A stretch of 61,668 nt of DNA, the filler included. It is 5 parts of 5 records of this genome, joined end to end, with 100 filler letters (N's around TTAATTAATTAA, not from the genome) between each part and the next. Parts side by side here need not be neighbours in the genome. Positions count along the whole stretch, not along the records: positions 52,853 to 61,668 come from DRR723986_9816; 4 more parts are not named here. One strand, 5' to 3'. Shown one piece after another: positions 9,016 through 61,668 of this stretch; position 1 is the stretch's first letter; every line of letters begins with the position of its first letter. The position numbers were made by a program, and so were the translations under genes. The notes under the pieces were generated by a model, which was given only the letters and a program-made list of their open reading frames with translations, ran no database searches and was not told the origin of the DNA.

Positions 9016-9115
9016 NNNNNNNNNNNNNNNNNNNNNNNNNNNNNNNNNNNNNNNNNNNNTTAATTAATTAANNNNNNNNNNNNNNNNNNNNNNNNNNNNN
9101 NNNNNNNNNNNNNNN
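9016..9115. other. Artificial contig linker
   Basis: N44-TTAATTAATTAA-N44, giving stops in all six frames. Confidence 0.98.
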
Positions 9116-14708: not shown

Positions 14709-14808
14709 NNNNNNNNNNNNNNNNNNNNNNNNNNNNNNNNNNNNNNNNNNNNTTAATTAATTAANNNNNNNNNNNNNNNNNNNNNNNNNNNNNNNNNNNN
14801 NNNNNNNN
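14709..14808. other. Artificial contig linker
   Basis: N44-TTAATTAATTAA-N44. Confidence 0.98.
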
Positions 14809-19652: not shown

Positions 19653-20005
19653 TGTTCGTCCATGATGGGCCGGTGAAGGTCTTTGTGGCGACGCGGCCTG
19701 TGGATTTCCGCAAGGGCATCGATGGCCTGGCACTGGCGGTGCAGGAGATGTTCGGGATGGACCCGTTCTGCGGGGCGGCCTTTGTGTTCCGGGCGAAACG
19801 GGCGGACAGGATCAAGCTCTTGATCTGGGATCAGACCGGCATGGTGCTGGTTCACAAACGGCTGGAAGGCGGCAAGTTCGTCTGGCCACAGGTGCGCGAT
19901 GGGGTCATGCGCATATCCAGCGCGCAGTTCGCGGCCCTTTTTGAGGGCGTGGATTGGCGGCTGGTGCGGCCAGAGCGGGTGCGGCGTCCGCTGGTGGCGG
20001 GGTGA
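19649..20005 (+). CDS. tnpB: IS66 accessory protein TnpB
   Basis: PVDFRKGIDGL...FVFRAKRADRIKLLIWD..G.VL..KRLE.GKF.WP. Confidence 0.95.
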   Translation: MMFVHDGPVKVFVATRPVDFRKGIDGLALAVQEMFGMDPFCGAAFVFRAKRADRIKLLIWDQTGMVLVHKRLEGGKFVWPQVRDGVMRISSAQFAALFEGVDWRLVRPERVRRPLVAG

Positions 20006-20072
20006 CGGAAAACTGTGCCGAAAGGCCTGTTTTTACTGGCCTGATAGGGCATCCTGTGATTCACTTTCGCCC

Positions 20073-21638
20073 ATGCGAACCACTGACCTTGCGCGCGAAA
20101 ACGCCCGGCTGAAAGCCCGCCTTGCCGAGGTGGAGGCGACGCTGGCCGAAACGCAGGAGGCCAACCGGCGGCTGCAAGATATTCTGAGTGCGGCGCAGCG
20201 CGAGAAATTTGGCAAGCGCTCCGAAAAGCTCTCGCCCGACCAGTTCAACCTGTTCCTGGAAGATGCCGAGTTCGCCCAGGGCGTTCTGGAGGCCGCGCAG
20301 GAAAAGGCCGAAGCGGCGATGCAGCGGGCGCGCGGGGAAACACCGCGCAAGCCCAAACGCAACCGTGGCCATCTGCCACCGCATCTGCCGCGCGTCGAAC
20401 GCGTAATCGAGCCTGGCAGCACGCTCTGCCCCTGTGGCTGTGGCGAGATGGCCAAGATCGGGGAAGACGTCTCCGAACGGCTGGACGTGATCCCCGCGCA
20501 GTTCCGGGTGCTGGTCACGCGTCGCCCCAAATACGCCTGCCGCCGCTGCGCGCAGGCCGTGGTGCAAGCGCATGCGCCTGAACATGTGGTGCCTGGCGGG
20601 CTGCCCACGGAACTCTTCATCGCCTGGATTATCGTCTCGAAGTTCGGTGACCACCTGCCGTTTTATCGGCAGGCCGAGATCTTCAAGCGGCAAGGGATCG
20701 ATCTGGACCGCGGCACACTCGGCAACTGGGTCGGGCGCGCCTGTTTCCACCTGATGCCCGTCATCAACCATATGCGTGCCCATCTGCGTGGCGCAGATCG
20801 CATCTTCGTGGATGAAACCCGCGCGCCGGTGCTGGACCCGGGCCTGAAACGCACCAAGAGTGGCTACTTCTGGGCGGTTGTGTCCGATGATCGCGGTCAT
20901 GGCGGGGGTGGCCCACCCATCGTGCTGTTCCATTATGCCCCCGGTCGGGGCAAGGTGCATCCGCTGAACTTTCTGGCCGGATACCGTGGTCGGTTCCTGC
21001 AATGCGATGCCTACCAGTCCTACAACGCGATGACCGAGATCACGCGCGAGAACGGCCCATGGCAACTGGTCTATTGCTGGACGCATGTGCGCCGCCGCTT
21101 CGTCAAGCGCTTCGAGAGCGATGGCTCACCCATCGCTGAAGAAATGCTGCGCCAGATCGCGCTGCTTTATCAAATCGAGAAGTCCGTCCGCGGCAAAGAG
21201 GCGCCTGCGCGCCTCGCCGCCCGGCGTGAACATGCGGCTCCGATCATCGCGGCGCTGAAACCCTGGCTGGAAGCCCAGCTCTCGCGGATTCCACAGAAAT
21301 CCCGGCTCGCCGAAGACATCCGCTACACGCTGGCCCACTGGCCCGGCCTGATCCGCTTCCTTGATGACGGCACGCTGGAACTCGACACCAACCCGGTCGA
21401 GAACCAGATCCGCCCGATCGCCCTGACAAGAAAGAATGCACTATTTGCAGGGAATGAAGTCGGCGCCGAGAACTGGGCCATGCTGGCCTCGCTGGTCGCC
21501 ACCTGCAAGATGTCCGACGTGAACCCCGTCGACTATCTCGCCACCACCCTGCGCGCCATCCTCGACGGCCACCCGCAAAGCGGCATCGAAGACCTCATGC
21601 CGTGGCGCTTCAACCAGCCGTCAAGCCTCGCCGCATAG
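20073..21638 (+). CDS. tnpC: IS66 DDE transposase TnpC
   Basis: FGKRSEK, Zn finger CPCGC..CRRC, KFGDHLPFYRQ, VDET, CWTHVRRRF, DTNPVENQIRP. Confidence 0.96.
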   Translation: MRTTDLARENARLKARLAEVEATLAETQEANRRLQDILSAAQREKFGKRSEKLSPDQFNLFLEDAEFAQGVLEAAQEKAEAAMQRARGETPRKPKRNRGHLPPHLPRVERVIEPGSTLCPCGCGEMAKIGEDVSERLDVIPAQFRVLVTRRPKYACRRCAQAVVQAHAPEHVVPGGLPTELFIAWIIVSKFGDHLPFYRQAEIFKRQGIDLDRGTLGNWVGRACFHLMPVINHMRAHLRGADRIFVDETRAPVLDPGLKRTKSGYFWAVVSDDRGHGGGGPPIVLFHYAPGRGKVHPLNFLAGYRGRFLQCDAYQSYNAMTEITRENGPWQLVYCWTHVRRRFVKRFESDGSPIAEEMLRQIALLYQIEKSVRGKEAPARLAARREHAAPIIAALKPWLEAQLSRIPQKSRLAEDIRYTLAHWPGLIRFLDDGTLELDTNPVENQIRPIALTRKNALFAGNEVGAENWAMLASLVATCKMSDVNPVDYLATTLRAILDGHPQSGIEDLMPWRFNQPSSLAA

Positions 21639-28566: not shown

Positions 28567-28666
28567 NNNNNNNNNNNNNNNNNNNNNNNNNNNNNNNNNN
28601 NNNNNNNNNNTTAATTAATTAANNNNNNNNNNNNNNNNNNNNNNNNNNNNNNNNNNNNNNNNNNNN
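28567..28666. other. Artificial contig linker
   Basis: N44-TTAATTAATTAA-N44. Confidence 0.98.
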
Positions 28667-39717: not shown

Positions 39718-41238
39718 CTATCCAACCTGCAATTGGGATTCAACGTGGCGAATCGCATCCTTGATTGACATGCCCCACGCGACGGAGGCACCCGTGCCCT
39801 CGTTCAGCCAGGACTCGACGGTCTTCTCCGCAGATATGACCGTGCTGTGACGCCGCTTACCAAAATACTCGCCGATCTCTTTGTACGCTGCTGGCGTATA
39901 TTTTCGCGCCAGGAACATTGCCAGCATCCTTGGCTGGCTGACTGAACGCATCTTGCTGGACGACTTAAGGCTCTGTGGTTCCAGGCCGAATACGCTGCAA
40001 ACGACCCGATCAATATCGACGATACGAACAACGGGCTGCGTTGCCTGGACTAAGTCAAAGACCGCCTCCCAGGCTTTTTCCCAGCTCAACTCACCTTCGG
40101 CAACACTCGCCGCCGCGGTCAGCCGTTTCGCAATGCCGCACACGACTCGTCCGTCACCACAGCAACGGCTTGCTAGCTGCTGGATGACCTGATCGTCCAG
40201 CTTGACACCTTCGCGCTGCAGCTCGTTGCGAAGCACTGTCTCCCGCAGTTGCTCGTCCAGGGGTGCGATTGGTGCAACTAGCCCGCCTCGCAACCGCCCC
40301 ACGATGTCGCTTCCCAGTGCGTCCAGGTCATTGAGCGACCGGTCAGCGGTGCAAACAACTTGGCGTCCCGCTTTGATCAAGTTGTCGAGCGTGTGCTTGA
40401 CCTCGGCAAGGGTGGATTTCTTTCCGACGAAGAACTGGATATCGTCCAGCACTAGTGCCTGGACGTCACGATACTTTCGCCGAAACATTGGAAGGCCGCC
40501 ACCACGCAGCCCTTCCATAAAGTCATTGGTAAATTGTTCACTGGTCATGTGAACAACGCGGCGCATCCGCTGATCAACCCGCAACTTCCGGGCAATGCTC
40601 GCCGCAATCAGGCTCTTTCCACAACCACTCGGGCCGTGGAAGAAGGCGGGCGAGAGTCGGCCGGGATCGTTAACCGCCAGGGTCGCCGTCGTGTAAGCGA
40701 GTTCATTTGAACTGCCGCGCAATGGCTCAACGATACGGGCCGCGTGCCCGCTTGATTCGCCCGGCGTTGCCTTCAGCGGAACTTTGCGTGCACCAGTTGC
40801 AACTGCTCGAGATTCAGACCGCTCGCTGGCCGCTCCTGGAAAAACAACAATGTCCGGCGCGTGTGTGTCGACAGACTGTTCACGACCAGACGTCGCGCTA
40901 CCAGCAACGGAGGAACTAGGAGGTTCGGTATCACCTGCCCGATTGCTGCTGGTGGTTTGATCGCTGGCAGCATTATCGCTGGCGACGCGGTAGTCGACTT
41001 GTACGTGTTCACCGAGGACCGTTTGCGCGGTCGCCGAAATGTCCTTGCCAAGCATCTTCCGAGCGAGCTGGCAGGCAAAGTCCGTGGCCATTTCGATAAC
41101 CAATACTTGGCCATCGAAGCTCCACGTTGCATCTGAGGATATCCATAAGTCGTAGCGCTCTGAGCTGATCCTATTGACCAGAGCAGATCGCACCATCGCC
41201 GCGACATCCATTTCGCTCTGGTTCAGTCCGTATGCCAT
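39718..41238 (-). CDS. dnaA: Chromosomal replication initiator DnaA (divergent paralog)
   Basis: Domain I W, Walker A GPSGCGKS, FRRKYR..LVLDDIQF, domain IV PRMLAMFLAR...EIG.YFG.R.HSTV. Confidence 0.88.
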   Translation of the reverse strand: MAYGLNQSEMDVAAMVRSALVNRISSERYDLWISSDATWSFDGQVLVIEMATDFACQLARKMLGKDISATAQTVLGEHVQVDYRVASDNAASDQTTSSNRAGDTEPPSSSVAGSATSGREQSVDTHAPDIVVFPGAASERSESRAVATGARKVPLKATPGESSGHAARIVEPLRGSSNELAYTTATLAVNDPGRLSPAFFHGPSGCGKSLIAASIARKLRVDQRMRRVVHMTSEQFTNDFMEGLRGGGLPMFRRKYRDVQALVLDDIQFFVGKKSTLAEVKHTLDNLIKAGRQVVCTADRSLNDLDALGSDIVGRLRGGLVAPIAPLDEQLRETVLRNELQREGVKLDDQVIQQLASRCCGDGRVVCGIAKRLTAAASVAEGELSWEKAWEAVFDLVQATQPVVRIVDIDRVVCSVFGLEPQSLKSSSKMRSVSQPRMLAMFLARKYTPAAYKEIGEYFGKRRHSTVISAEKTVESWLNEGTGASVAWGMSIKDAIRHVESQLQVG

Positions 41239-52752: not shown

Positions 52753-52852
52753 NNNNNNNNNNNNNNNNNNNNNNNNNNNNNNNNNNNNNNNNNNNNTTAA
52801 TTAATTAANNNNNNNNNNNNNNNNNNNNNNNNNNNNNNNNNNNNNNNNNNNN
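52753..52852. other. Artificial contig linker
   Basis: N44-TTAATTAATTAA-N44. Confidence 0.98.
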
Positions 52853-52962
52853 TGCTGATGACATCAGGCTTGCCTTTTGATTCTTTTGTTAGTTTGTGTG
52901 TCCCGGGATTGAATTCAATGAGCCTGGCCCAAAGTAATGCGAATATGATTCTATGGACTATT

Positions 52963-53640
52963 ATGCAAGACCTCACAACTCAATTCTTTGATGCTCTGTG
53001 TCTGCACGAGACACCTGCGGTTTTTCTGCCCGGAACTCCTGAGACAATGCTGCGAACTACGGTCGATGCTTCCGGCTGGTACGACTGGCAGCCTATTCCA
53101 GGTACCTTGCAGTCGGAAGACTACAAATCTCTGGAACGCGAATTCGGCGCTGTCTTACCTGACAGTTTCATCGAATGGCACATGCGCTACTTCTTTGCCG
53201 ACGCGGATTGCTGGCTGGTCCGCCTGCCAAATTCCCTGCCACAAGATCCTTTGGCAGCCGTGCGCAGCAACTTAAACATCGGCTACTCAGAAGATCTGAT
53301 CGCTGCAGGACTTATTCCTTTTGCGGATGACGGCAATGACGCCGGTTCACTTGTGTTTGACACGAGGGGACAAAACGGCCGGGCGGATTTTCCGATTTTA
53401 GAATATGATCATGAGTACCCTGACGTCCTGGACGGACTCTCCGGTGTGATTTTTTCATCGTTTAACAAACTGCTCGAATGCATGACGCATTTTTTGAAGG
53501 AAACACGCACACGCAAGAGGTTTGACGTCATACCTGCTTTCTTTGACATCGATCCGGCAGGCGCCGGCGCTGAAGGCCGTTACTACTGGGAGAATTGGAT
53601 CGATATGGAACGCATGAACTATGAAGAGTCTGGAGACTGA
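52963..53640 (+). CDS. SMI1/KNR4 (SUKH) family immunity-type protein
   Basis: LE.EFG.VLPDSF..W, LIPFADDG.D...VFD, I..YDHE, FSSF..LLE. The ORF is open from 52858. Confidence 0.8.
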   Translation: MQDLTTQFFDALCLHETPAVFLPGTPETMLRTTVDASGWYDWQPIPGTLQSEDYKSLEREFGAVLPDSFIEWHMRYFFADADCWLVRLPNSLPQDPLAAVRSNLNIGYSEDLIAAGLIPFADDGNDAGSLVFDTRGQNGRADFPILEYDHEYPDVLDGLSGVIFSSFNKLLECMTHFLKETRTRKRFDVIPAFFDIDPAGAGAEGRYYWENWIDMERMNYEESGD

Positions 53641-53870
53641 TGCCAGATACAAGTAATTGCAACTGATGCATCGACGCCAAACAAAAATATCATAAAGCAA
53701 GCCCGAAGTATAAGGGCGCTGCAATGCATGTCTACTGAAGTGTCTTGAAGATTGATTCCGCTTGAATGCCTTGAGTCATTAGATGCTAATCGCAGAGTAT
53801 TAATCGCCGAATCTTAAGTCCAGCTTGTTTAACAATTGGAAGAATCAGGTTCCTAAGTACTATTCTCAGT

Positions 53871-54524
53871 CTACTCCTGAAGTTTAAACACACCGGAGTC
53901 TAAAACATAGGTCCCAGGTGCAGGCTCATTAACACTGCCATATTCAATCGTGGAGAATTCGGACATTCCACCATAACATTCCAAGGGACCAATAGTGATC
54001 TGGCCTGCAGAATACGTGACTTCGCGTTTGCAGCCTTGATCGTCGTGATCAGAGGCAAACCAGCCAAAGTGCTCAAAGGTGGCAATCGACAGCAGGCGCG
54101 TTTTTTTGACCGGATCCCAAATCTTAATGGACTCATGCTCGGAGCCACCTCGACTGCCGTTTTGGACTCCACTTAACCTGAAAATCATTTCAGGTGTGCC
54201 GTCTTCAGTAATGTCTACAAAGTCGATAGATTTGAGGTCGATGTGCTGCATGTCATTCAAATCATAGTCGTCATCATACCAGGTGAACCAATGGATTCCA
54301 GCTTTGTAACCCACCATTCCGCGCCAGAGGGCAAAACCCTCGGTCGTGCTTATGGCCAAGAGATCACCGCAAGGGTGAGTGTTAAACAAGTGAAACAGAC
54401 TTTCACTGCGTTTAACATCCCAGGATTCAACCTGGACTGTCGGTAAAACGGTGAGAGAATCCTGACTGAAGGCCGCTGCCGAACAAAGTACGCTTAAACA
54501 AATCAAAACTAGAGCCCGCGTCAT
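53871..54524 (-). CDS. Hypothetical secreted protein
   Basis: AGGAG RBS before ATG 54524, Sec signal MTRALVLICLSVLCSAAAFS, Dx[DN]xDG-like DITEDGTPE. Confidence 0.7.
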   Translation of the reverse strand: MTRALVLICLSVLCSAAAFSQDSLTVLPTVQVESWDVKRSESLFHLFNTHPCGDLLAISTTEGFALWRGMVGYKAGIHWFTWYDDDYDLNDMQHIDLKSIDFVDITEDGTPEMIFRLSGVQNGSRGGSEHESIKIWDPVKKTRLLSIATFEHFGWFASDHDDQGCKREVTYSAGQITIGPLECYGGMSEFSTIEYGSVNEPAPGTYVLDSGVFKLQE

Positions 54525-54977
54525 ATCTGCGCTCCTGGAAAAGAGACTGGAATATGTGAATCTTTCTCGGTTTCGGTTGCGGCAGACCTGAATCCCAAAG
54601 ACTGAAGGTTGACGGCAATATAGTCGTATTACCTCACATATCAATGCTTACATGCCTGGGCTGACTACAATTAGCTACTTTGAGTCGTGATTGTGGCAGT
54701 ATCGCTGTCTCACCCTCAAGCTACTATTTATGCGGTCTCAGGCGATAATTTGCACCAAATTCAGTGCCAAACAGGCGATAGGGGAAGCTTTAGAATGTGC
54801 AATCATTTGGATTGCCGGGGGCGGGCAGCGCAGCTACTTTGCGAAAGTGATTCGGGGCAAATCAAATGTTAATACAACTCCCGAACGCAACATGTTAAAA
54901 CAAAACATGCAATACACTTCCGGGCTGACGGAGCTGTATCGAAATTTATCCATTCTATTTATCTGAAGGTTTTCCAT

Positions 54978-55580
54978 ATGAGTCCATCTCAAGACTGCTG
55001 CTGGATTGCTGTGGCAACAACAGCCTGTACGATGCCCGCTACTGGGCCTGCGAGCGGAGCACAAAATGTTTCAGGACAGACCAGAACAAATCAAACAGCT
55101 GGTACTGCTTCGGCTGCCGGCTGCCCAGTGATTATGTTAACAACGGCCTGTAGTTTTAGTGCGCAGGAAGTCGCTACGTCGCAGGCCAATGCCTCGGCGG
55201 CCGGCTGCCCGGTGATTGCTTTGACAACCGCCTGCAGTTTTAGTGCGCAGGAGATAGCCGCGAAACAGGCGGATGCCAATGCTGCCGGCTGTCCAGTGAT
55301 CATGTTAACAACCGCCTGTAGTTTCAGTGCGCAAGACGTCGCGCAGAAACAAGCCGATGCCGCAACATCAGGCTGTCCGGTGATTGCTTTGACGACCGCC
55401 TGTAGTTTCAGTGCGCAGGAGATTGCCAAGTCTCAGGCCGATGCCGCGACATCGGGCTGTCCGGTAATTGCTTTGACAACCGCCTGCAGCTTCAGTGCTC
55501 AAGAGATAGCCGCGAAACAGGCGGATGCAAGTGCTGCCGGCTGTCCGGTAATTATGTTAACAACTGCCTGCTCCTTCTAG
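54978..55580 (+). CDS. Multi-core RiPP (lanthipeptide-like) precursor: 6x GCPVI(M/A)LTTACSF plus one variant core
   Basis: 28-aa (84-nt) period, cores starting at 55119, 55203, 55287, 55371, 55455 and 55539. Core DNA differs mainly at synonymous positions. GAAGG RBS; directly upstream of kinase, lyase and cyclase genes. Confidence 0.9.
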   Translation: MSPSQDCCWIAVATTACTMPATGPASGAQNVSGQTRTNQTAGTASAAGCPVIMLTTACSFSAQEVATSQANASAAGCPVIALTTACSFSAQEIAAKQADANAAGCPVIMLTTACSFSAQDVAQKQADAATSGCPVIALTTACSFSAQEIAKSQADAATSGCPVIALTTACSFSAQEIAAKQADASAAGCPVIMLTTACSF

Positions 55581-55650
55581 TGGCGCCGCCGCATGGCAGT
55601 CCTGTAGGCTAATGACGTCAATTATGGACTGTTAAGACCCGAGCATTCAG

Positions 55651-55700
55651 GGAGGAGGAGAGCTTCTCCATACTTTTCTGTGCTTCTCCTTCTCCTTTTT
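55651..55700 (+). terminator. Hairpin plus U-tract between precursor and enzyme genes (terminator/attenuator)
   Basis: GGAGGAGGAGAGC (55651-55663) pairs with GCTTCTCCTTCTCC (55682-55695), followed by TTTTT. Confidence 0.55.
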
Positions 55701-55725
55701 CATCATTTACCTGCCCGGACAAATC

Positions 55726-56850
55726 ATGTACACTGTTGATAACATCCACTCCTTGCTCCTGGAGCAAAAACTGATTTCCATGCGCTCGTTTGTCAATGGT
55801 GATTATGAAGCAACGAGTGTCAACCGCCGCAACCAGAACCTGCGCATCACGACGCTCGCCGAAGGTAATTACCTGGTTAAACAAGTGCAGGATAAAGAGG
55901 CCGTGAATGCAGTTACTGTGCGGCGCGAGATTGATTTCTACCGCACACTCAAAACAACTGTGCCGGAATTGGCCGCTTTGTGTCCGCAGCATATCTATTC
56001 TGACAGAGATAGAATCATTCTGATGATTGAGCTGTTTGAAAAAGCGATGCCCCTCTGGAAATACTACAGAATTAAGACAATAGAGCATATGCCGCTGGCG
56101 ACGGTTGAAGCCATAGCAGTACTTCTGGCGACGGTGCACCGGAGGCTCGCAGAGCCCAAAGTCCTTGGACATCCCAACTTTGAGTTTCTGTCGCAAGACC
56201 TGCCCTTTGCGTTTGGCATGACACAACCAGATCCCGCGATATTAACATTTATCAGGCAGGGAAGCCTGCAATTCCTGCAAAATCTGCAGGCAAACGCGGA
56301 TATCCTCGAAATTCTGGCTGCCGTTCGTGAGCTGTGGCAATTGAATGCGGTGATTCACGGTGATATTAAACTCGACAACTTTTTGGTCCTTGGCGAAGAT
56401 AAGTCAATTCGCAATGCGAGCTCAGATGTTAGACTTATCGACTGGGAGATGCTGCAGTTTGGTGATTTTGCCTGGGATGTTGCCGGGGTGTTTCAGGATA
56501 AAATATTCTGGTGGGCACAATCAATGCCGCAGCGTGATACACCTGAAGAAATGGCGCAGGCCGCCCAGTTTCCGATAAATCGCCTGGCGCCGTCCATGCA
56601 GAAGTTTTGGGAGATTTACTGCCGCACTTCTGAGTTCTCGGCTGAGTATGAGCGGCAACTGCTCCACAAGGTTGTGCGTTATGCCGGCCTGCGCACGCTG
56701 CAGACCGCCTACGAAGTCTGTTCCAGATTTGATGAAATTCCGCCCGTAGGCGCAATTCTGCTCGGTATCGGCAAAAGTATTCTGCGCAAACCCGAAGAAG
56801 CTGCAATTCACCTGTTTGGATTTAAGCCGGAGGTGTTAGATGTTAACTGA
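55726..56850 (+). CDS. APH-family phosphotransferase, LanK-like Ser/Thr kinase of a split dehydratase
   Basis: RRNQNL.I....YLVKQ N-lobe, catalytic HGDIKLDN, LIDWE, GD.AWD.AG. Confidence 0.88.
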   Translation: MYTVDNIHSLLLEQKLISMRSFVNGDYEATSVNRRNQNLRITTLAEGNYLVKQVQDKEAVNAVTVRREIDFYRTLKTTVPELAALCPQHIYSDRDRIILMIELFEKAMPLWKYYRIKTIEHMPLATVEAIAVLLATVHRRLAEPKVLGHPNFEFLSQDLPFAFGMTQPDPAILTFIRQGSLQFLQNLQANADILEILAAVRELWQLNAVIHGDIKLDNFLVLGEDKSIRNASSDVRLIDWEMLQFGDFAWDVAGVFQDKIFWWAQSMPQRDTPEEMAQAAQFPINRLAPSMQKFWEIYCRTSEFSAEYERQLLHKVVRYAGLRTLQTAYEVCSRFDEIPPVGAILLGIGKSILRKPEEAAIHLFGFKPEVLDVN

Positions 56851-57913
56851 AAAAGTACACAGCGACATCCTGAAAGTAATTGATGCGGTCGAGTTTATCT
56901 CAGAAAGTGAGTATGCGCTGAACGGTTTGCGCCGCGACATCAGCAATATGCACATCATTGACCCGAGCGGGCATGTGAATGTTAGTCCCGTTGTTAAACA
57001 GCCTGCGCACTACGCCGAGAATTTTTGCAGAGTGCTGACGGCCGACATCTATCAGCAACTGTACAGCCCCGCCGAGGACGCCAATTCACAGATCCCCGAC
57101 ACCGAAATTATTGGCTTCCGCGCTAAACTCTCGCATGCCAATCAAGGCAGCGGTACCTGGGAGGCGGGCTGGAAGATCATTGGCGTAGAAGCAGCCGCAG
57201 GCGAGCCGGACGGGAAGATCATCGTCTCAAATGGCATACTGCAATTCTGGGCGAATGCCGTTGATGTTAGCACAGGCGGCAATACATTTGTTGCCGGGGC
57301 TGAATGTCAGGTTCGAGTCGGCAAAGAAGTCCAGAGTCTAAATCCACACTTCTTTATGGTCTATGGCAATCTTAACAAAGATGAAGTTGACGGTTTTGCC
57401 GGCAAAATGCTGCGGTTCTACTGGAACCTGACTGCGGCGGGCGCAATCAAGTATATTGAACTTGTCACAGACATGTTTAATCATGCCGGAATCCTTTTTA
57501 AGACAAAAGTACTTTCGGATTCGCAGGCTTATAAACGTACAGATGGCGGCGTGCTGTACACCGACAGCAGTCAGCTGCGCCAGGCCGTGCCCTTGTTAAT
57601 GCGTATCCATGCTGAGTTGCAGCCGTTCCTGGGAGCAAATGTACCGCTGTTCACCCGTAAAATGGCGCATGGCCTGGCTTTTGCCGAAGATCCGGCGACC
57701 GGCGAGAGTTTTGGAATATCGCGCGCAAGTATCATTGCACGTGGCATGCATGCCTCTTTTAGCAATGGCCGTACGCGTCCGCAAGAAATGCTGCAATCAG
57801 TACATAAACACCTCGCCAGGGCCGGCATTGAACCGCAACATCCATACTCGTATAAAACTAACCGTGCCATGTACGAGCGCATCCTGAACAATTCTGCAAC
57901 TGTTAACCATTGA
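56840..57913 (+). CDS. HopA1-like protein, LanY-like phospho-Ser/Thr lyase
   Basis: RFYWNL, FKTKVL, Y.RTDGGVLY, PLFTRK...GLAFAEDP..GESFG..R, recognised as HopA1-family motifs; overlaps the kinase by 11 nt. Confidence 0.82.
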   Translation: MLTEKVHSDILKVIDAVEFISESEYALNGLRRDISNMHIIDPSGHVNVSPVVKQPAHYAENFCRVLTADIYQQLYSPAEDANSQIPDTEIIGFRAKLSHANQGSGTWEAGWKIIGVEAAAGEPDGKIIVSNGILQFWANAVDVSTGGNTFVAGAECQVRVGKEVQSLNPHFFMVYGNLNKDEVDGFAGKMLRFYWNLTAAGAIKYIELVTDMFNHAGILFKTKVLSDSQAYKRTDGGVLYTDSSQLRQAVPLLMRIHAELQPFLGANVPLFTRKMAHGLAFAEDPATGESFGISRASIIARGMHASFSNGRTRPQEMLQSVHKHLARAGIEPQHPYSYKTNRAMYERILNNSATVNH

Positions 57914-59247
57914 ACGGCAGCAATACCATGACAGATACACTTATCAGACCCGAACGTATGACTGAGAATCAAGACTTTCTGAGCGCCGCCTGCAACATTG
58001 GTGATCATCTGCTGGAAACAGCACTTTGGGATGCCGAACATGAGACCTGTAATTGGTTGGCACGGCGCGATATTGAGGATGCTGAAGTCGCACCCTACGC
58101 CGATCAAACTGCGGCGCTGAGCCCCGAAATATACAGTGGTTCGGGTGGTCTTGCATTATTCCTGGCGGAGTTATTCGGTCTAACACAAAATCCAGATTAC
58201 CGCGCGTCGGCTGTGGCGGCCTGGTTGCGATCTGTGCGTTACATGCGGACGAATGAATTCCCGGATTCGCCGCTTTCATTCTATGCCGGTAAGTTGGGTC
58301 TGCTCTATGTTGGCTACCGTATTTTGGATATGGGCCAGAATGCAGACATTAATATCGCGGCGGAACTGGACTGGTTAAGCGCTGAGCTGGAAGATGCTCT
58401 GCAAAAAGAACATTCGCTGGATGTGATTGGCGGAAATGCCGGCGCAATTCCAGCTCTGCTGTATCTGGCTGAAAAACACGACCTGGAGTTTTGTGGGCAG
58501 CTTGCCGTGGACTGCGCACAGGAAATTGTCAACAAGGCAGACTGGCAGGGGGACATGTGTTTGTGGACCTCCGAAAAGATCCACGGCATCGAGTTAAATT
58601 TGCCGCCGCTGACTGGATATTCACATGGTGCGGCGGGATTAGGGGTGGCGCTGCTTGAAGTTTATGCGGCCACGCAGAACCCAAGCTTTCTGCAACATGC
58701 GCGTGGAGCTTTTGCATTTGAAGCGGCCTATTTTAACGATGCAGAGGGCAACTGGATTGACACGCGCCATCCGCACAAGATTGAGAATGAAAAAAATATT
58801 ACGGGTACCTGCCGCAATGCCTGGTGTCACGGCGCTCCCGGAATTGCCCTGGCGCATATGCGCGCCGCCTCGCTCGATACGGAGCGCCAGGACTTTCACC
58901 GGCGAATGGCCAAAACTGCGATTGAAACCACAAAACGCGACATTGCTGTCAAGCTCAAAACTCCACGCAAAGATGCTACGCTCTGCCATGGGATTTTGGG
59001 CTCCGTTGAGATCGTGTTAACATATGGAAAATACCTGCAGGATGAGGCGGCGATTGAATTTGCGCGTTCGGTCACTTCGGCATATCTCGCAAAATTTAAC
59101 TCACCGCTGGAGATGGCCTCCGGTCTAAATACGGGTAGCTACAGCCCTTCACTGATGATTGGCCTTGCGGGAATTGGTATGCATTGTTTGCGACTGATTG
59201 ACGACTCCGTCCGCTCGGTGTTGATTACTTTGCCGGATCACGTTTAG
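57910..59247 (+). CDS. lanC: Stand-alone lanthionine synthetase C-like cyclase with intact Zn ligands
   Basis: YSGSGG.ALFL, DVIGGNAG, GYSHGAAG (catalytic His), AWCHGAPG and LCHG (Cys/Cys/His Zn triad), LMIGLAGIG. Start is TTG 57910 or ATG 57928. Confidence 0.92.
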   Translation: MNGSNTMTDTLIRPERMTENQDFLSAACNIGDHLLETALWDAEHETCNWLARRDIEDAEVAPYADQTAALSPEIYSGSGGLALFLAELFGLTQNPDYRASAVAAWLRSVRYMRTNEFPDSPLSFYAGKLGLLYVGYRILDMGQNADINIAAELDWLSAELEDALQKEHSLDVIGGNAGAIPALLYLAEKHDLEFCGQLAVDCAQEIVNKADWQGDMCLWTSEKIHGIELNLPPLTGYSHGAAGLGVALLEVYAATQNPSFLQHARGAFAFEAAYFNDAEGNWIDTRHPHKIENEKNITGTCRNAWCHGAPGIALAHMRAASLDTERQDFHRRMAKTAIETTKRDIAVKLKTPRKDATLCHGILGSVEIVLTYGKYLQDEAAIEFARSVTSAYLAKFNSPLEMASGLNTGSYSPSLMIGLAGIGMHCLRLIDDSVRSVLITLPDHV

Positions 59248-59516
59248 GATCAGGCGCCAAGGTTTGCAAAGCCCTCTATTGAATTCCGGAAAATAGTGTA
59301 TTTTGGCGCCGGCCCCGGTTTGCACCACGGGAAGCTGCCAATTAAAATACTTCACAGGACGGGTCAAAGTTCTTGTCGGGTAGCCGCTGGAGAGGAACTC
59401 TGCGCTGGAAATACGCTCTCCACTCCTTGCGAGCCACGATGATGGACAAATGATTAAGCGTCTGCACCGAAGTATTTGTCCATACAAACTCAAAACACTA
59501 TTCTTCCGGAGCGATT

Positions 59517-60557
59517 ATGTGTACACGTGTATTTAACAACCATGAAAAGACATTGCTGACAACAGGCAGAAACATGGACTGGCCCGAACAAATGGATACC
59601 AGTCTGTACTATTTTTATAGCGGACTTAACAAAACCGGTTTGCCGGCCGGAGATACTTCGGGCACTACACCCTTAAAGTGGACATCCAAATACGCTAGTG
59701 TTGTAGCCATGATTTCCAGTGCCGGTGCGGCCGATGGTTTAAACAGTGAGGGGCTGGCAGCCAACGTCCTCTATTTGGCCTGTAGCACCTACGCCGATGC
59801 CGCACAGCGCAAAGGCAAAACCGGTTTGAGTGTGCTGCGTTGGTTGCAGTACGTTGTTGACAGTTTTGCAAATGTTAATGAAGTAGTCGAGGAATTTAAG
59901 GACAACACTGAACTGGTATTGGTCGGCGCCAAAGTTCCGGGAGACTCCGGCGGTGCGGAAGCCCAGCTCCACCTTTCGATTTCCGACCGGCATGGTGATT
60001 CCGCAATCATTGAAATATTTGACGGCAAATATGTTGTGCACAGCGCCCCCAGATATCGCGTGATGACGAATGACCCGCGCTTCGGTAAACAACTTGAGAT
60101 TGACGAATATTGGCGCTGGCAATATGAAATGAAAGACAATGAAAACCCCACGTTCACGCTGCCCGGAACCGTGTATTCTGCCGATCGATTTGCCAGAGCC
60201 AGGTACTACGTGGAAAACATGGTTAAAGTTGAGGATGAACACAGTGCGGTTGCGCAAATGTTCTCTATCGTTCGCAACGCGGCCGTACCACTTGGTTACG
60301 AGGTTCCCAACCGATGCACGGGCCAACCGCAGGCTATCGCGCAAACGCTGTGGTCAACAGTTTCGGTGCATGATAATAGGACTTACTATTTCGGCGATTC
60401 TTCGACTCCCAACATTTTTTGGGTCGAGCTGCTTAAGCCCTTTTCCACGTCGGCCACAAGCTTGCAACTCGAAACCAAAGTTGATGGGCACTACGTTTTT
60501 TATGCAGGTTGTGTTAACAAGGCTTTTTCCGCAAGTACGGATCCATTTGCGGCATAA
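59517..60557 (+). CDS. Ntn-hydrolase, choloylglycine hydrolase / penicillin V acylase (linear amide C-N hydrolase) family
   Basis: N-terminal nucleophile M-C-T-R, GRNMDW, DGLNSEGL, MTNDP, S.DRF.RA; no signal peptide. Confidence 0.92.
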   Translation: MCTRVFNNHEKTLLTTGRNMDWPEQMDTSLYYFYSGLNKTGLPAGDTSGTTPLKWTSKYASVVAMISSAGAADGLNSEGLAANVLYLACSTYADAAQRKGKTGLSVLRWLQYVVDSFANVNEVVEEFKDNTELVLVGAKVPGDSGGAEAQLHLSISDRHGDSAIIEIFDGKYVVHSAPRYRVMTNDPRFGKQLEIDEYWRWQYEMKDNENPTFTLPGTVYSADRFARARYYVENMVKVEDEHSAVAQMFSIVRNAAVPLGYEVPNRCTGQPQAIAQTLWSTVSVHDNRTYYFGDSSTPNIFWVELLKPFSTSATSLQLETKVDGHYVFYAGCVNKAFSASTDPFAA

Positions 60558-60717
60558 ACTCATGCGCAAAGGCAAGTGTGTTTTTGTCTTTGCGTATGTT
60601 TTTTTGAGCGCTGTAGCTGCGCTGGGCGCTTTTTTAAAGGCATTCTTGTTTTGCACTGCTGCAAGGGTGTGAATTCGCGCAGCAGTGTTAAAACCTGGAT
60701 GTCAGATTGTTTTAGAT

Positions 60718-60768
60718 CCAGAATTAGTCCCACAGTTAATCCCACAGTTAATCCCAGAATTAATCCCA
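60718..60768. repeat. 12-nt tandem repeat CCA(GAA/CAG)TTA(A/G)TC x4
   Basis: Units at 60718, 60730, 60742 and 60754. Confidence 0.85.
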
Positions 60769-61074
60769 GGGGCCGTTTTTGTTAATGTCTTGGCATGGAT
60801 TGAATCGTATGGTTTGCGTTCATGCCTCGAAAGCGAACATGAAACCATGTTTTTGACCACTATTCTATTTGATTGACTTGGTTAAAGAGTACTCATACCC
60901 AATATGTACTGAATAAATTTCGGTGCATCAATCGCCAACAACGCTGAAAATGCCAAAGCAATCAGTAAAATTCTGAGTACGTCCAGTCCGAGTGATTCCA
61001 ACCAATTCCTTTGTTTTGCGTGGACTTGGCGTAGTAGCTTTTCCAACGTTGGTATTGTCGATAGTGCTTCCAGC

Positions 61075-61215
61075 CTTTGCATCACTGCCATTGGCAAAGC
61101 ATCTCTAACCATGAAGCGATCATTGCGTTGGCTCATGGCCCACCCGACGAAGTGTTTACTACATCCATCCATCTCGCAGGTCCGGTTTAGCCAGCCCTCC
61201 GATGTTGTGAGGCGA
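61075..61215 (-). pseudogene. IS3 family transposase (integrase core) fragment
   Basis: TTSEGWLNRTCEMDGCSKHFVGWAMSQRND..MVRDAL.MA matches the T.EGWLYLA..D..SR.IVGW.M...LV..AL..A pattern. Confidence 0.8.
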
Positions 61216-61442
61216 ACTTGGGAAGGTCATAGTCAGAATGGTTGTTCGAAATGTATAAAAACCGACCGGATCTTGTATCAGAGGATCCGGTCAGAGTGTT
61301 TCGCAAAATTCAAGACATATTGCTTCAAAGGCTTACGTTTACAGGCTCGTATAAAACCAAACCCGAGGCGGAAATTGTCGGAACAAAGCTATTTGTATTC
61401 AGCGAGTGACAAACAATCATGTTAAATCACACGAAATACTGG

Positions 61443-61667
61443 TTAAGGGTCTATGTAGAGCGGGCAGGATGTGCTTGGAGTATAATACTCGCTGTCAGCT
61501 GCTACTGAATCACCGTCAAGATCATAAGCGAAGTTGATAGTCATCACATAGTTTTGACCGTGGGCCAGACCTGCTTCATTGCAACGAATTCTAGGTCTCC
61601 CAGAAAGATCAGTCTGCGATGATCTCAGTTGAGCGACCAAAACACTATTTTGGTAAAATTTGTATTC
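61443..61667 (-). CDS. C-terminal end of an unknown CDS entering from the window edge
   Basis: The frame is open from the window end (EYKFYQNSVLVAQ...) to the stop at 61443. Confidence 0.5.
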   Translation of the reverse strand, partial: EYKFYQNSVLVAQLRSSQTDLSGRPRIRCNEAGLAHGQNYVMTINFAYDLDGDSVAADSEYYTPSTSCPLYIDP

Positions 61668-61668
61668 A

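Follow-up and report, generated by a model that had tools for sequence, protein, structure and literature searches.

The stretch of DNA analysed here (61,668 nucleotides, referred to below as the window) contains at positions 54978-59247 four open reading frames (ORFs), all on the + strand, whose products are, in this order, a repeat peptide of 200 aa (amino acids), a kinase of the APH fold, a lyase of the HopA1 family and a LanC protein. An initial annotation of the locus had described co-oriented precursor, kinase, HopA1-like and LanC genes, and this arrangement was confirmed at the same coordinates. We consider it likely, judging from the gene content and from the comparison with related loci, that the locus is a class Vb-type LanA-LanK-LanY-LanC lanthipeptide cluster with a leaderless multi-core substrate, and the cluster is real and probably functional. 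The features on which this interpretation is built are the following.

54978..55580, + strand: LanA-like precursor gene (200 aa, leaderless, 15 Cys, seven cores), from ORF and translation
54993..55034, + strand: core 0 of the precursor, ancestral CCW type with three Cys, residues 6-19, DCCWIAVATTACTM; motif as in the cores of the four-core relatives
55119..55577, + strand: six tandem 28-residue units with the derived core GCPVI(M/A)LTTACSF, from Tandem Repeats Finder (TRF) and translation
55726..56850, + strand: LanK, APH-fold Ser/Thr kinase, 374 aa (Pfam APH PF01636, 43.6 bits, E 3.9e-11)
56840..57913, + strand: LanY, HopA1-family phospho-Ser/Thr lyase, 357 aa (Pfam HopA1 PF17914, 133.7 bits, E 7.9e-39)
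57910..59247, + strand: LanC, stand-alone Zn-dependent lanthionine cyclase, 445 aa if started at TTG 57910 and 439 aa if started at ATG 57928

The hidden Markov model searches that the initial annotation had suggested matched all three enzymes to the expected Pfam families (APH, HopA1 and LANC_like), the ORF at 56840-57913 being a HopA1 (PF17914) protein and LanC matching LANC_like (PF05147) with 178.7 bits (E 1.6e-52). The catalytic residues of LanK are intact, and in the aligned relatives K52 was found in 62/63 sequences and D213, N218 and D239 each in 63/63. In LanY, R192 and R233 were each shared by all 73 aligned relatives, K223 by 72 and Y240 by 62. The spacing of R192/K223/R233/Y240 is 31, 10 and 7 residues, compared with 32, 10 and 7 for R187/K219/R229/Y236 of CaoY, the two sets being matched through spacing and motif rather than through a direct alignment. 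In PMC9486802 these CaoY residues are described as critical or conserved, and mutation of R187, K219 or R229 as abolishing or impairing elimination; the paper also reports that dehydration by CaoK/CaoY was reconstituted in vitro and that LanY removes the phosphate as one half of a K-Y heterodimer. Ser/Thr phosphorylation is the established role of LanK. When compared with the chains of PDB 9dk1, LanY matched the lyase chain (E 3e-5) and LanK, weakly, the kinase chain (E 4e-4).

In LanC, residues H239, C306, C359 and H360 align with NisC (chain 2g02_A; LicM2 was also aligned) at its HG, WC and CHG motifs, whose residues we take to be the acid and Zn ligands of NisC. The WCHG/CHG ligands claimed earlier correspond to C306/H307 and C359/H360. 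Among the aligned relatives H239, C306, C359 and H360 were each present in 65/65 and H307 in 61/65. The Zn site of LanC enzymes activates Cys for Michael addition. The best NCBIfam match of LanC was the LanM model, of which it covers no more than the cyclase region at the C-terminus (positions 540-931 in a profile of 932) with 242.8 bits against a cutoff of 304, and the scores with the LanL and LanKC models were 93.4 bits (cutoff 650) and 57.8 bits (cutoff 575), respectively. LanK reached 87.5 bits with the LxmK model, under the cutoff of 315. With all NCBIfam matches below cutoff, the enzymes are, as far as these profiles tell, relatives of curated lanthipeptide families and not members.

Class V systems have been divided into class Va, with LanK, LanY, LanD and LanX and no LanC, and class Vb, with LanK, LanY and a dedicated LanC on which cyclisation depends (PMC11186320, PMC12291118 and PMC12328550, as far as their available text goes). 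The window encodes a stand-alone APH-fold kinase (PF01636) with its catalytic residues, a stand-alone HopA1-family lyase with the CaoY-type Arg/Lys/Arg set and a dedicated stand-alone LanC (PF05147) with Cys-Cys-His ligands. Pfam detected no LanB, LanM dehydratase domain, LanD, LanX, YcaO or methyltransferase among the scanned ORFs of the 8.8-kb piece 52853-61668 that carries the cluster. The lack of LanD and LanX is as described for class Vb, and the earlier statement that LanB, a LanM dehydratase domain, LanD, YcaO and methyltransferases are absent from the contig holds for these ORFs. Class I is characterised by LanB, a domain not seen there; class II by an N-terminal LanM dehydratase domain, whereas the 445-aa LanC corresponds to LanM positions 540-931 only; and class III/IV by a single polypeptide combining lyase, PF00069 kinase and cyclase, whereas the window has three separate ORFs. 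The precursor does not have the N-terminal leader and single core of a SmoA-like class Vb precursor, a difference that lies in the substrate and not in the enzymes.

The same enzymes had been interpreted in the initial annotation as a route outside the usual classes, in which a class V dehydratase is combined with a LanC of the class I/II/IV type to form a new hybrid. The absence of LanB, a LanM N-domain, LanD, LanX and YcaO from the scanned ORFs, together with the LanM cyclase domain being the best curated-model match of LanC, would agree with such a hybrid. In contrast, LanK and LanY plus LanC without LanD/LanX is exactly the set already named class Vb in the available text of PMC11186320, PMC12291118 and PMC12328550, with one characterised member, and the triad is widespread in public genomes and metagenomes (see below); a new class is therefore extremely improbable. 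The claim of an unusual class was thus wrong, whereas its own caveat that similar triads might already be catalogued proved justified. The chemistry proposed with it survives without the novelty: phosphorylation, elimination and cyclisation by LanC are what the domains and the intact residues predict.

What distinguishes the locus is the precursor. Its N-terminus, MSPSQD, is followed immediately by the core CCWIAVATTACT and then by a 28-residue linker leading to the six tandem units; there is no leader, 5-6 residues preceding the first core. The motif of core 0 is the same as that of the last unit of locus L010 and of the units of locus L013 (related loci are designated by L numbers). At 55113-55571 TRF detected 5.5 copies of a repeat with a period of 84 nt. 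The derived core has 13 residues with two Cys, Thr-Thr and Ser, and in units 1-5 it is followed by a 15-residue spacer of the form SAQ(E/D)(I/V)A..QA(D/N)A..., while the stop codon lies directly 3' of the sixth derived core. Aligned to core 0, the derived cores have Gly for the first Cys and Pro for the Trp. With seven cores in one 200-aa chain, the multi-core precursor of the initial annotation was verified.

Comparison of the units codon by codon gave 108 identical, 78 synonymous and 9 non-synonymous pairs for the cores, all nine at the M/A position, and 59 identical, 42 synonymous and 49 non-synonymous pairs for the spacers. These numbers indicate that the cores are under purifying selection. 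Across the five full units the + frame was the only stop-free one of the six, and it had the highest synonymous share (0.63). Near-identical cores that are more conserved than their linkers characterise cassette-type precursors of peptides that are synthesised ribosomally and then modified post-translationally (RiPPs), and the same layout was found in 19 related loci. Searches with Pfam and NCBIfam gave no above-cutoff match for the precursor of the window or for those of its relatives. A search of 5.8 billion proteins returned nothing at E <= 0.001, a blank that says little because the same search also missed existing CCW precursors; repeats this short escape the method.

With a profile built from 20 LanY sequences, 79 loci were obtained from contigs of one genome per species. 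The genes for LanK, LanY and LanC (K-Y-C) were colinear and adjacent in 61 of the 79; a LanC match was found in 68, seven of which lacked the colinear and adjacent order, and 11 loci, mostly of Thermoleophilia or Miltoncostaeaceae, had K-Y with no LanC match within the locus. When metagenomes were searched with a LanC profile of the nearest clade, at least 569 stretches matched, 80 were kept, and the K-Y-C order was seen in 40 of the 45 in which LanC was preceded by 2300 nt or more. A neighbourhood survey of the kinase-HopA1-LanC triad had also been suggested by the initial annotation, and by these counts the triad is common. Since the gene order recurs in genomes and metagenomes, the four-gene arrangement is more than chance. 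Direct comparison of the window's LanY with genome contigs gave no confirmed relative among 25 matched stretches, nor did comparison of its LanC with metagenome contigs among 58; the closest LanC, among the matches listed, was 52-55% identical to that of the window.

A repeat ORF containing at least two copies of C-x(4-7)-[TS]-x2-C-[TS] was located directly upstream of K in 20 of the 79 loci. Four cores of the type (D)CCWIVLATTGCST were found in 11 loci (Bacteroidota L001-5, L008 and L013; Rhizobium L006, L007 and L010; Burkholderiaceae L011), 10-12 cores on the same skeleton, for example DCKHVMWTAGCTF and DCGNVLTTLACTL, in eight Sphingomonas loci, and three cores in Aliiroseovarius (L066). 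Outside these 20 loci, a metagenome contig (L083) has three CCW cores. The precursor ends of the window and of 19 loci were examined (L007, being identical to L006, was omitted), and 18 of these 20 precursors terminate exactly at core residue 12. The first (extra) Cys, Trp2 and the second Thr (Thr8) are invariant throughout the 40 CCW cores of the four-core clade, positions which the search pattern did not impose. It could be argued that the enzymes do not act on the repeat ORF product, or that the cluster is an inactive remnant whose true precursor is located elsewhere or has been lost, and the shortness of the contig, which may extend past the window, would be compatible with this. We regard such a situation as very unlikely, because all catalytic residues are intact, the Cys/Thr skeleton of the repeat ORF is shared across phyla and always lies directly upstream of K, and the cores are under purifying selection.

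In a LanC tree of 61 rows (quick IQ-TREE search) the window fell into a set of 13 rows with an SH-aLRT value of 100. Besides the window, the set comprises the 11 CCW loci, without exception, and L009, whose 2.7-kb contig has no upstream DNA; all 11 members with readable upstream DNA have four-core CCW precursors. The CCW clade mixes Bacteroidota, Alpha- and Betaproteobacteria, which implies that the unit has moved between phyla. The Planctomycetota loci L014, L015 and L069 lie outside the set of the window and have a different, long-leader precursor. Clustering of the neighbouring genes of 24 multi-core loci revealed nothing beyond the four genes (A-K-Y-C) that is conserved across clades.

From these data we infer the following route for the locus, from phosphorylation to released peptides with a presumed biological activity. 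The 200-aa chain would be made with seven cores, one of the three-Cys CCW type and six of the two-Cys type GCPVI(M/A)LTTACSF. LanK, probably associated with LanY as CaoK is with CaoY, would use ATP to phosphorylate Thr/Ser in every core, and LanY would eliminate the phosphate to give dehydrobutyrine (Dhb) or dehydroalanine (Dha). At its Zn site LanC would then add Cys thiols to Dhb/Dha, forming up to 15 (methyl)lanthionine, or (Me)Lan, thioether rings per chain. The skeleton that all cores have in common, C1-x5-T7-x2-C10-[S/T]11-x, would permit two nested rings, a small one between Dhb7 and Cys10 lying within a large one between Cys1 and Dha/Dhb11. Such a nested pattern would be of the overlapping kind that, in the available literature, is said to require the cyclase in class Vb. 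The loosely conserved spacers would probably be trimmed by proteases encoded elsewhere, unlinked to the cluster, and trimming would free up to seven hydrophobic, bicyclic peptides of 12-14 residues and of two kinds.

The main alternative is that the modified chain is never cut and acts whole, as one poly-cyclic 20-kDa repeat protein or as a few large fragments. It would explain why no protease or transporter is conserved across the 24 multi-core loci, it needs no leader removal, in keeping with a precursor that has no leader, and it is consistent with the 359-676-aa repeat precursors of other K-Y-C loci, which resemble proteins more than they do peptide cassettes. In contrast, the exact ending of 18/20 precursors after a core suggests a defined C-terminal edge of the product, the spacers change far more freely than the cores, both within the window and between taxa, as would be expected of discarded linkers, and the number of cores varies (3, 4, 7 or 10-12) with the core itself unchanged. 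We judge the uncut chain rather unlikely on this account, and prefer the reading in which single cores would be released from a class Vb substrate.

Several observations weigh against the class Vb assignment with a leaderless multi-core substrate. The kinase lies far under the LxmK equivalog cutoff (87.5 vs 315), and the matches of LanK and LanY to the one class V kinase/lyase pair with a solved structure are weak (E 4e-4 and 3e-5). The precursor offers no leader peptide for the enzymes to recognise, and no protease or exporter is conserved beside the cluster in the 24 multi-core loci, which leaves the release and export of single cores unsupported. The four anchor positions of the core skeleton were set by the regular expression used in the search, so that part of their invariance is built in. 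The antisense frame that shares the wobble positions has a synonymous share of 0.54 (but contains two stops) compared with 0.63 for the + frame, so the codon test separates the strands modestly, and the assignment to the + strand is based mainly on the stops, the co-orientation of the genes and the conservation across phyla. Finally, the contig piece that carries the cluster is short and deviates in composition: the GC content of 52853-61668 is 0.494 vs 0.55 in the other pieces, and the tetranucleotides of this piece correlate with those of the rest at 0.55, whereas equal-sized chunks of the other pieces gave 0.63-0.89. The deviation could result from horizontal transfer or from a binning error.

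The Smo system is among the closest known systems. SmoK/SmoY/SmoC with SmoA were reportedly characterised as a class Vb system by Pei et al. (JACS 2022, 144:17549), a study known to us via citing papers. In the available text of PMC11186320, mSmoA/SmoC from Streptomyces is the sole class Vb member as of 2024. As far as the available accounts go, the Smo system is like the window in that kinase (APH-type), lyase (HopA1-type) and a dedicated LanC are three separate enzymes and in that it lacks LanD/LanX, and its products contain only (Me)Lan rings, the cyclase being needed for overlapping rings, which resembles the chemistry proposed here. It differs in the substrate, SmoA having, according to the available parts of reviews, a leader and a single core, whereas the precursor of the window is leaderless with seven cores. 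It also differs in the hosts, which are actinomycetes for Smo and Gram-negative-type lineages for systems of the window type, Smo being compared by description only.

The four-core CCW loci, such as those of Lacinutrix jangbogonensis (NZ_JSWF01000014.1, L002), a Microbacter metagenome-assembled genome (MAG; OY782761.1, L001) and Rhizobium (L006, L007 and L010), contain the same four-gene unit in the same order. Between the window and L001-L011 the identities are 48-55% for LanC, 40-51% for K and 36-45% for Y. The precursors of the CCW loci are leaderless, multi-core and end at a core, like that of the window, whose core 0 is of the CCW type. Whereas the CCW loci have four cores (three in L083), all with three Cys, the window has one such core and six derived ones that have lost one Cys and the Trp, and its spacers are longer and more uniform than those of the CCW loci.

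The class Va systems (cacaoidin, lexapeptide, pristinin and triantimycins) share with the window the split LanK + LanY dehydratase with the same Arg/Lys/Arg set. According to the available descriptions, they differ from it in that LanC is missing, LanD and LanX are present and the product has an AviMeCys at its C-terminus, their rings being formed spontaneously or via LanX. Class IV LanL resembles the window in its kinase, lyase and Zn-LanC chemistry, but unites them in a single fused protein, in which the kinase is of the PF00069 family and the lyase of the OspF type. Cyanobactins and microviridins are likewise made from chains with several linker-separated cores, giving several products per translation, by different chemistry. 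Cyanobactin systems are said to have dedicated proteases.

The enzyme triad is thus already known and common, and the precursor is the part for which no precedent was found. Searches of open-access text gave no description of a multi-core leaderless substrate of LanK/LanY/LanC, the core motif strings occurred in 0 papers, and among the matches listed for open papers with 'lanthipeptide' and 'HopA1' none was, by its title, on multi-core systems. A 2026 paper states that multi-core precursors are unreported for lanthipeptides. We tentatively suggest, as a claim that could about as easily fail as hold, that the locus and its relatives may represent the first multi-core cassette-type lanthipeptide precursors, in which 3-12 copies of C-x5-T-x2-C-[S/T]-x would be converted to nested-ring peptides by the class Vb trio. 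This leaderless, cross-phylum family was found in Bacteroidota, Alpha- and Betaproteobacteria and one planctomycete-binned contig, that of the window, which would be the most derived member with two products (1 + 6 cores).

The substrate choice of class Vb enzymes is barely known, one pathway being characterised as of 2024 in the available text of PMC11186320. If the suggestion is correct, a leaderless tandem-core substrate would mean that LanK, LanY and LanC recognise the core or short flanking linkers directly, lanthipeptides would join the RiPP classes with cassette-type precursors, and the system could be used in engineering to obtain many ring peptides per transcript. As cultured strains of Lacinutrix, Rhizobium, Sphingomonas and Aliiroseovarius carry the family, it is directly testable.

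Precursors of other kinds were also seen beside K-Y-C. ORFs of 359-676 aa are located directly upstream of LanK in L012, L017, L019, L021, L022, L024, L025, L027 and L041, whose hosts include Acidobacteriota, Gemmatimonadota, a Clostridia MAG, Dormibacterota and others; they consist of a conserved N-terminal domain of approximately 120 aa (...DP.NPP..L.L.G..G.S.E.GH.RLY.D..L..YV.IP..AI.H...) followed by dozens of Cys/Pro/Thr-rich repeats. Neither Pfam nor NCBIfam matched the precursors of L034 and L069 in a spot check. Repeat precursors with other motifs, for example GPTGWYTC..ATHLLGCTT x14 and GPTSSECTQTCE x5, were noted in L047 (5193-6533), L039 (5424-6782), L053 (147-1196), L029 (23-823) and L145 (3218-3631), and cores in tandem thus seem to be generally favoured in this enzyme family. 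The K-Y-C loci of Planctomycetota (L014, L015, L016 and L069), all outside the LanC clade of the window, have a precursor of 164-218 aa that combines a conserved leader domain with a short tail bearing Cys at the C-terminus.

Around the four genes the following further features were recorded.

54965..54969, + strand: GAAGG, a motif resembling a ribosome-binding site, 8 nt 5' of the precursor ATG, read off the sequence
55650..55697, + strand: hairpin (GA-rich/CT-rich, tail rich in T) in the gap separating the precursor gene from the kinase gene
59517..60557, + strand: amidase of the choloylglycine-hydrolase family (N-terminal nucleophile, Ntn, type with Cys2; PF02275, 147.6 bits), co-oriented with the cluster and starting with Met-Cys
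60561..60598, + strand: strong intrinsic-terminator-like hairpin of 16 pairs with a T run, after the amidase gene, closing the co-oriented gene block
52753..52852, no strand: artificial contig joint N44-TTAATTAATTAA-N44; the contig of the cluster begins at 52853

The overlap of the three enzyme genes, from which translational coupling had been proposed, was partly upheld. The kinase and lyase genes share 11 nt, and GGAGGTG precedes the ATG of the lyase gene, whereas the 4-nt overlap of the lyase and LanC genes requires TTG 57910 as the LanC start; the alternative start, ATG 57928, lies 15 nt past the lyase stop and fits the N-termini of the relatives equally well. In the gap between the precursor and kinase genes a terminator-like match was found at 55651-55669. 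The fold of 55575-55730 has an energy of -47.8 kcal/mol (z = -2.2), and 3 of 200 shuffled sequences were as stable. The hairpin at 55650..55697 may be an attenuator that would set the ratio of precursor to enzymes.

That the amidase belongs to the cluster is doubtful. It was considered as a spacer protease and rejected as a conserved part, homologues being found in 0/79 related loci; a role in spacer trimming is possible but unsupported. Matches to it were found in 12/301, 28/301 and 15/301 genomes of the phylum samples of L014 (Planctomycetota-titled), L002 (Lacinutrix) and L060 (Sphingomonas), with best identities of 46, 44 and 44%, respectively. With best identities so similar across the three phyla samples (44-46%), the amidase is not diagnostic of the host. 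For a 257-aa protein encoded upstream, an Atlas look-up yielded neither an informative name nor a taxon.

Artificial joints of the form N44-TTAATTAATTAA-N44 occur at 9016-9115, 14709-14808, 28567-28666 and 52753-52852. The window therefore consists of five contigs strung together, gene neighbourhood across the joints is meaningless, and the host of the cluster is uncertain. A DnaA/Hda-family protein encoded on the neighbouring piece (39718-41238, - strand) is 55-62% identical to proteins of Aureliella and Pirellulaceae, its best match (78%) being unnamed. As this only taxonomic anchor is on a different piece, and the composition differs, the assignment to planctomycetes depends on the binning. 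A complete IS66-family transposase with four Pfam domains is encoded at 19899-21638, on another of the contig pieces.

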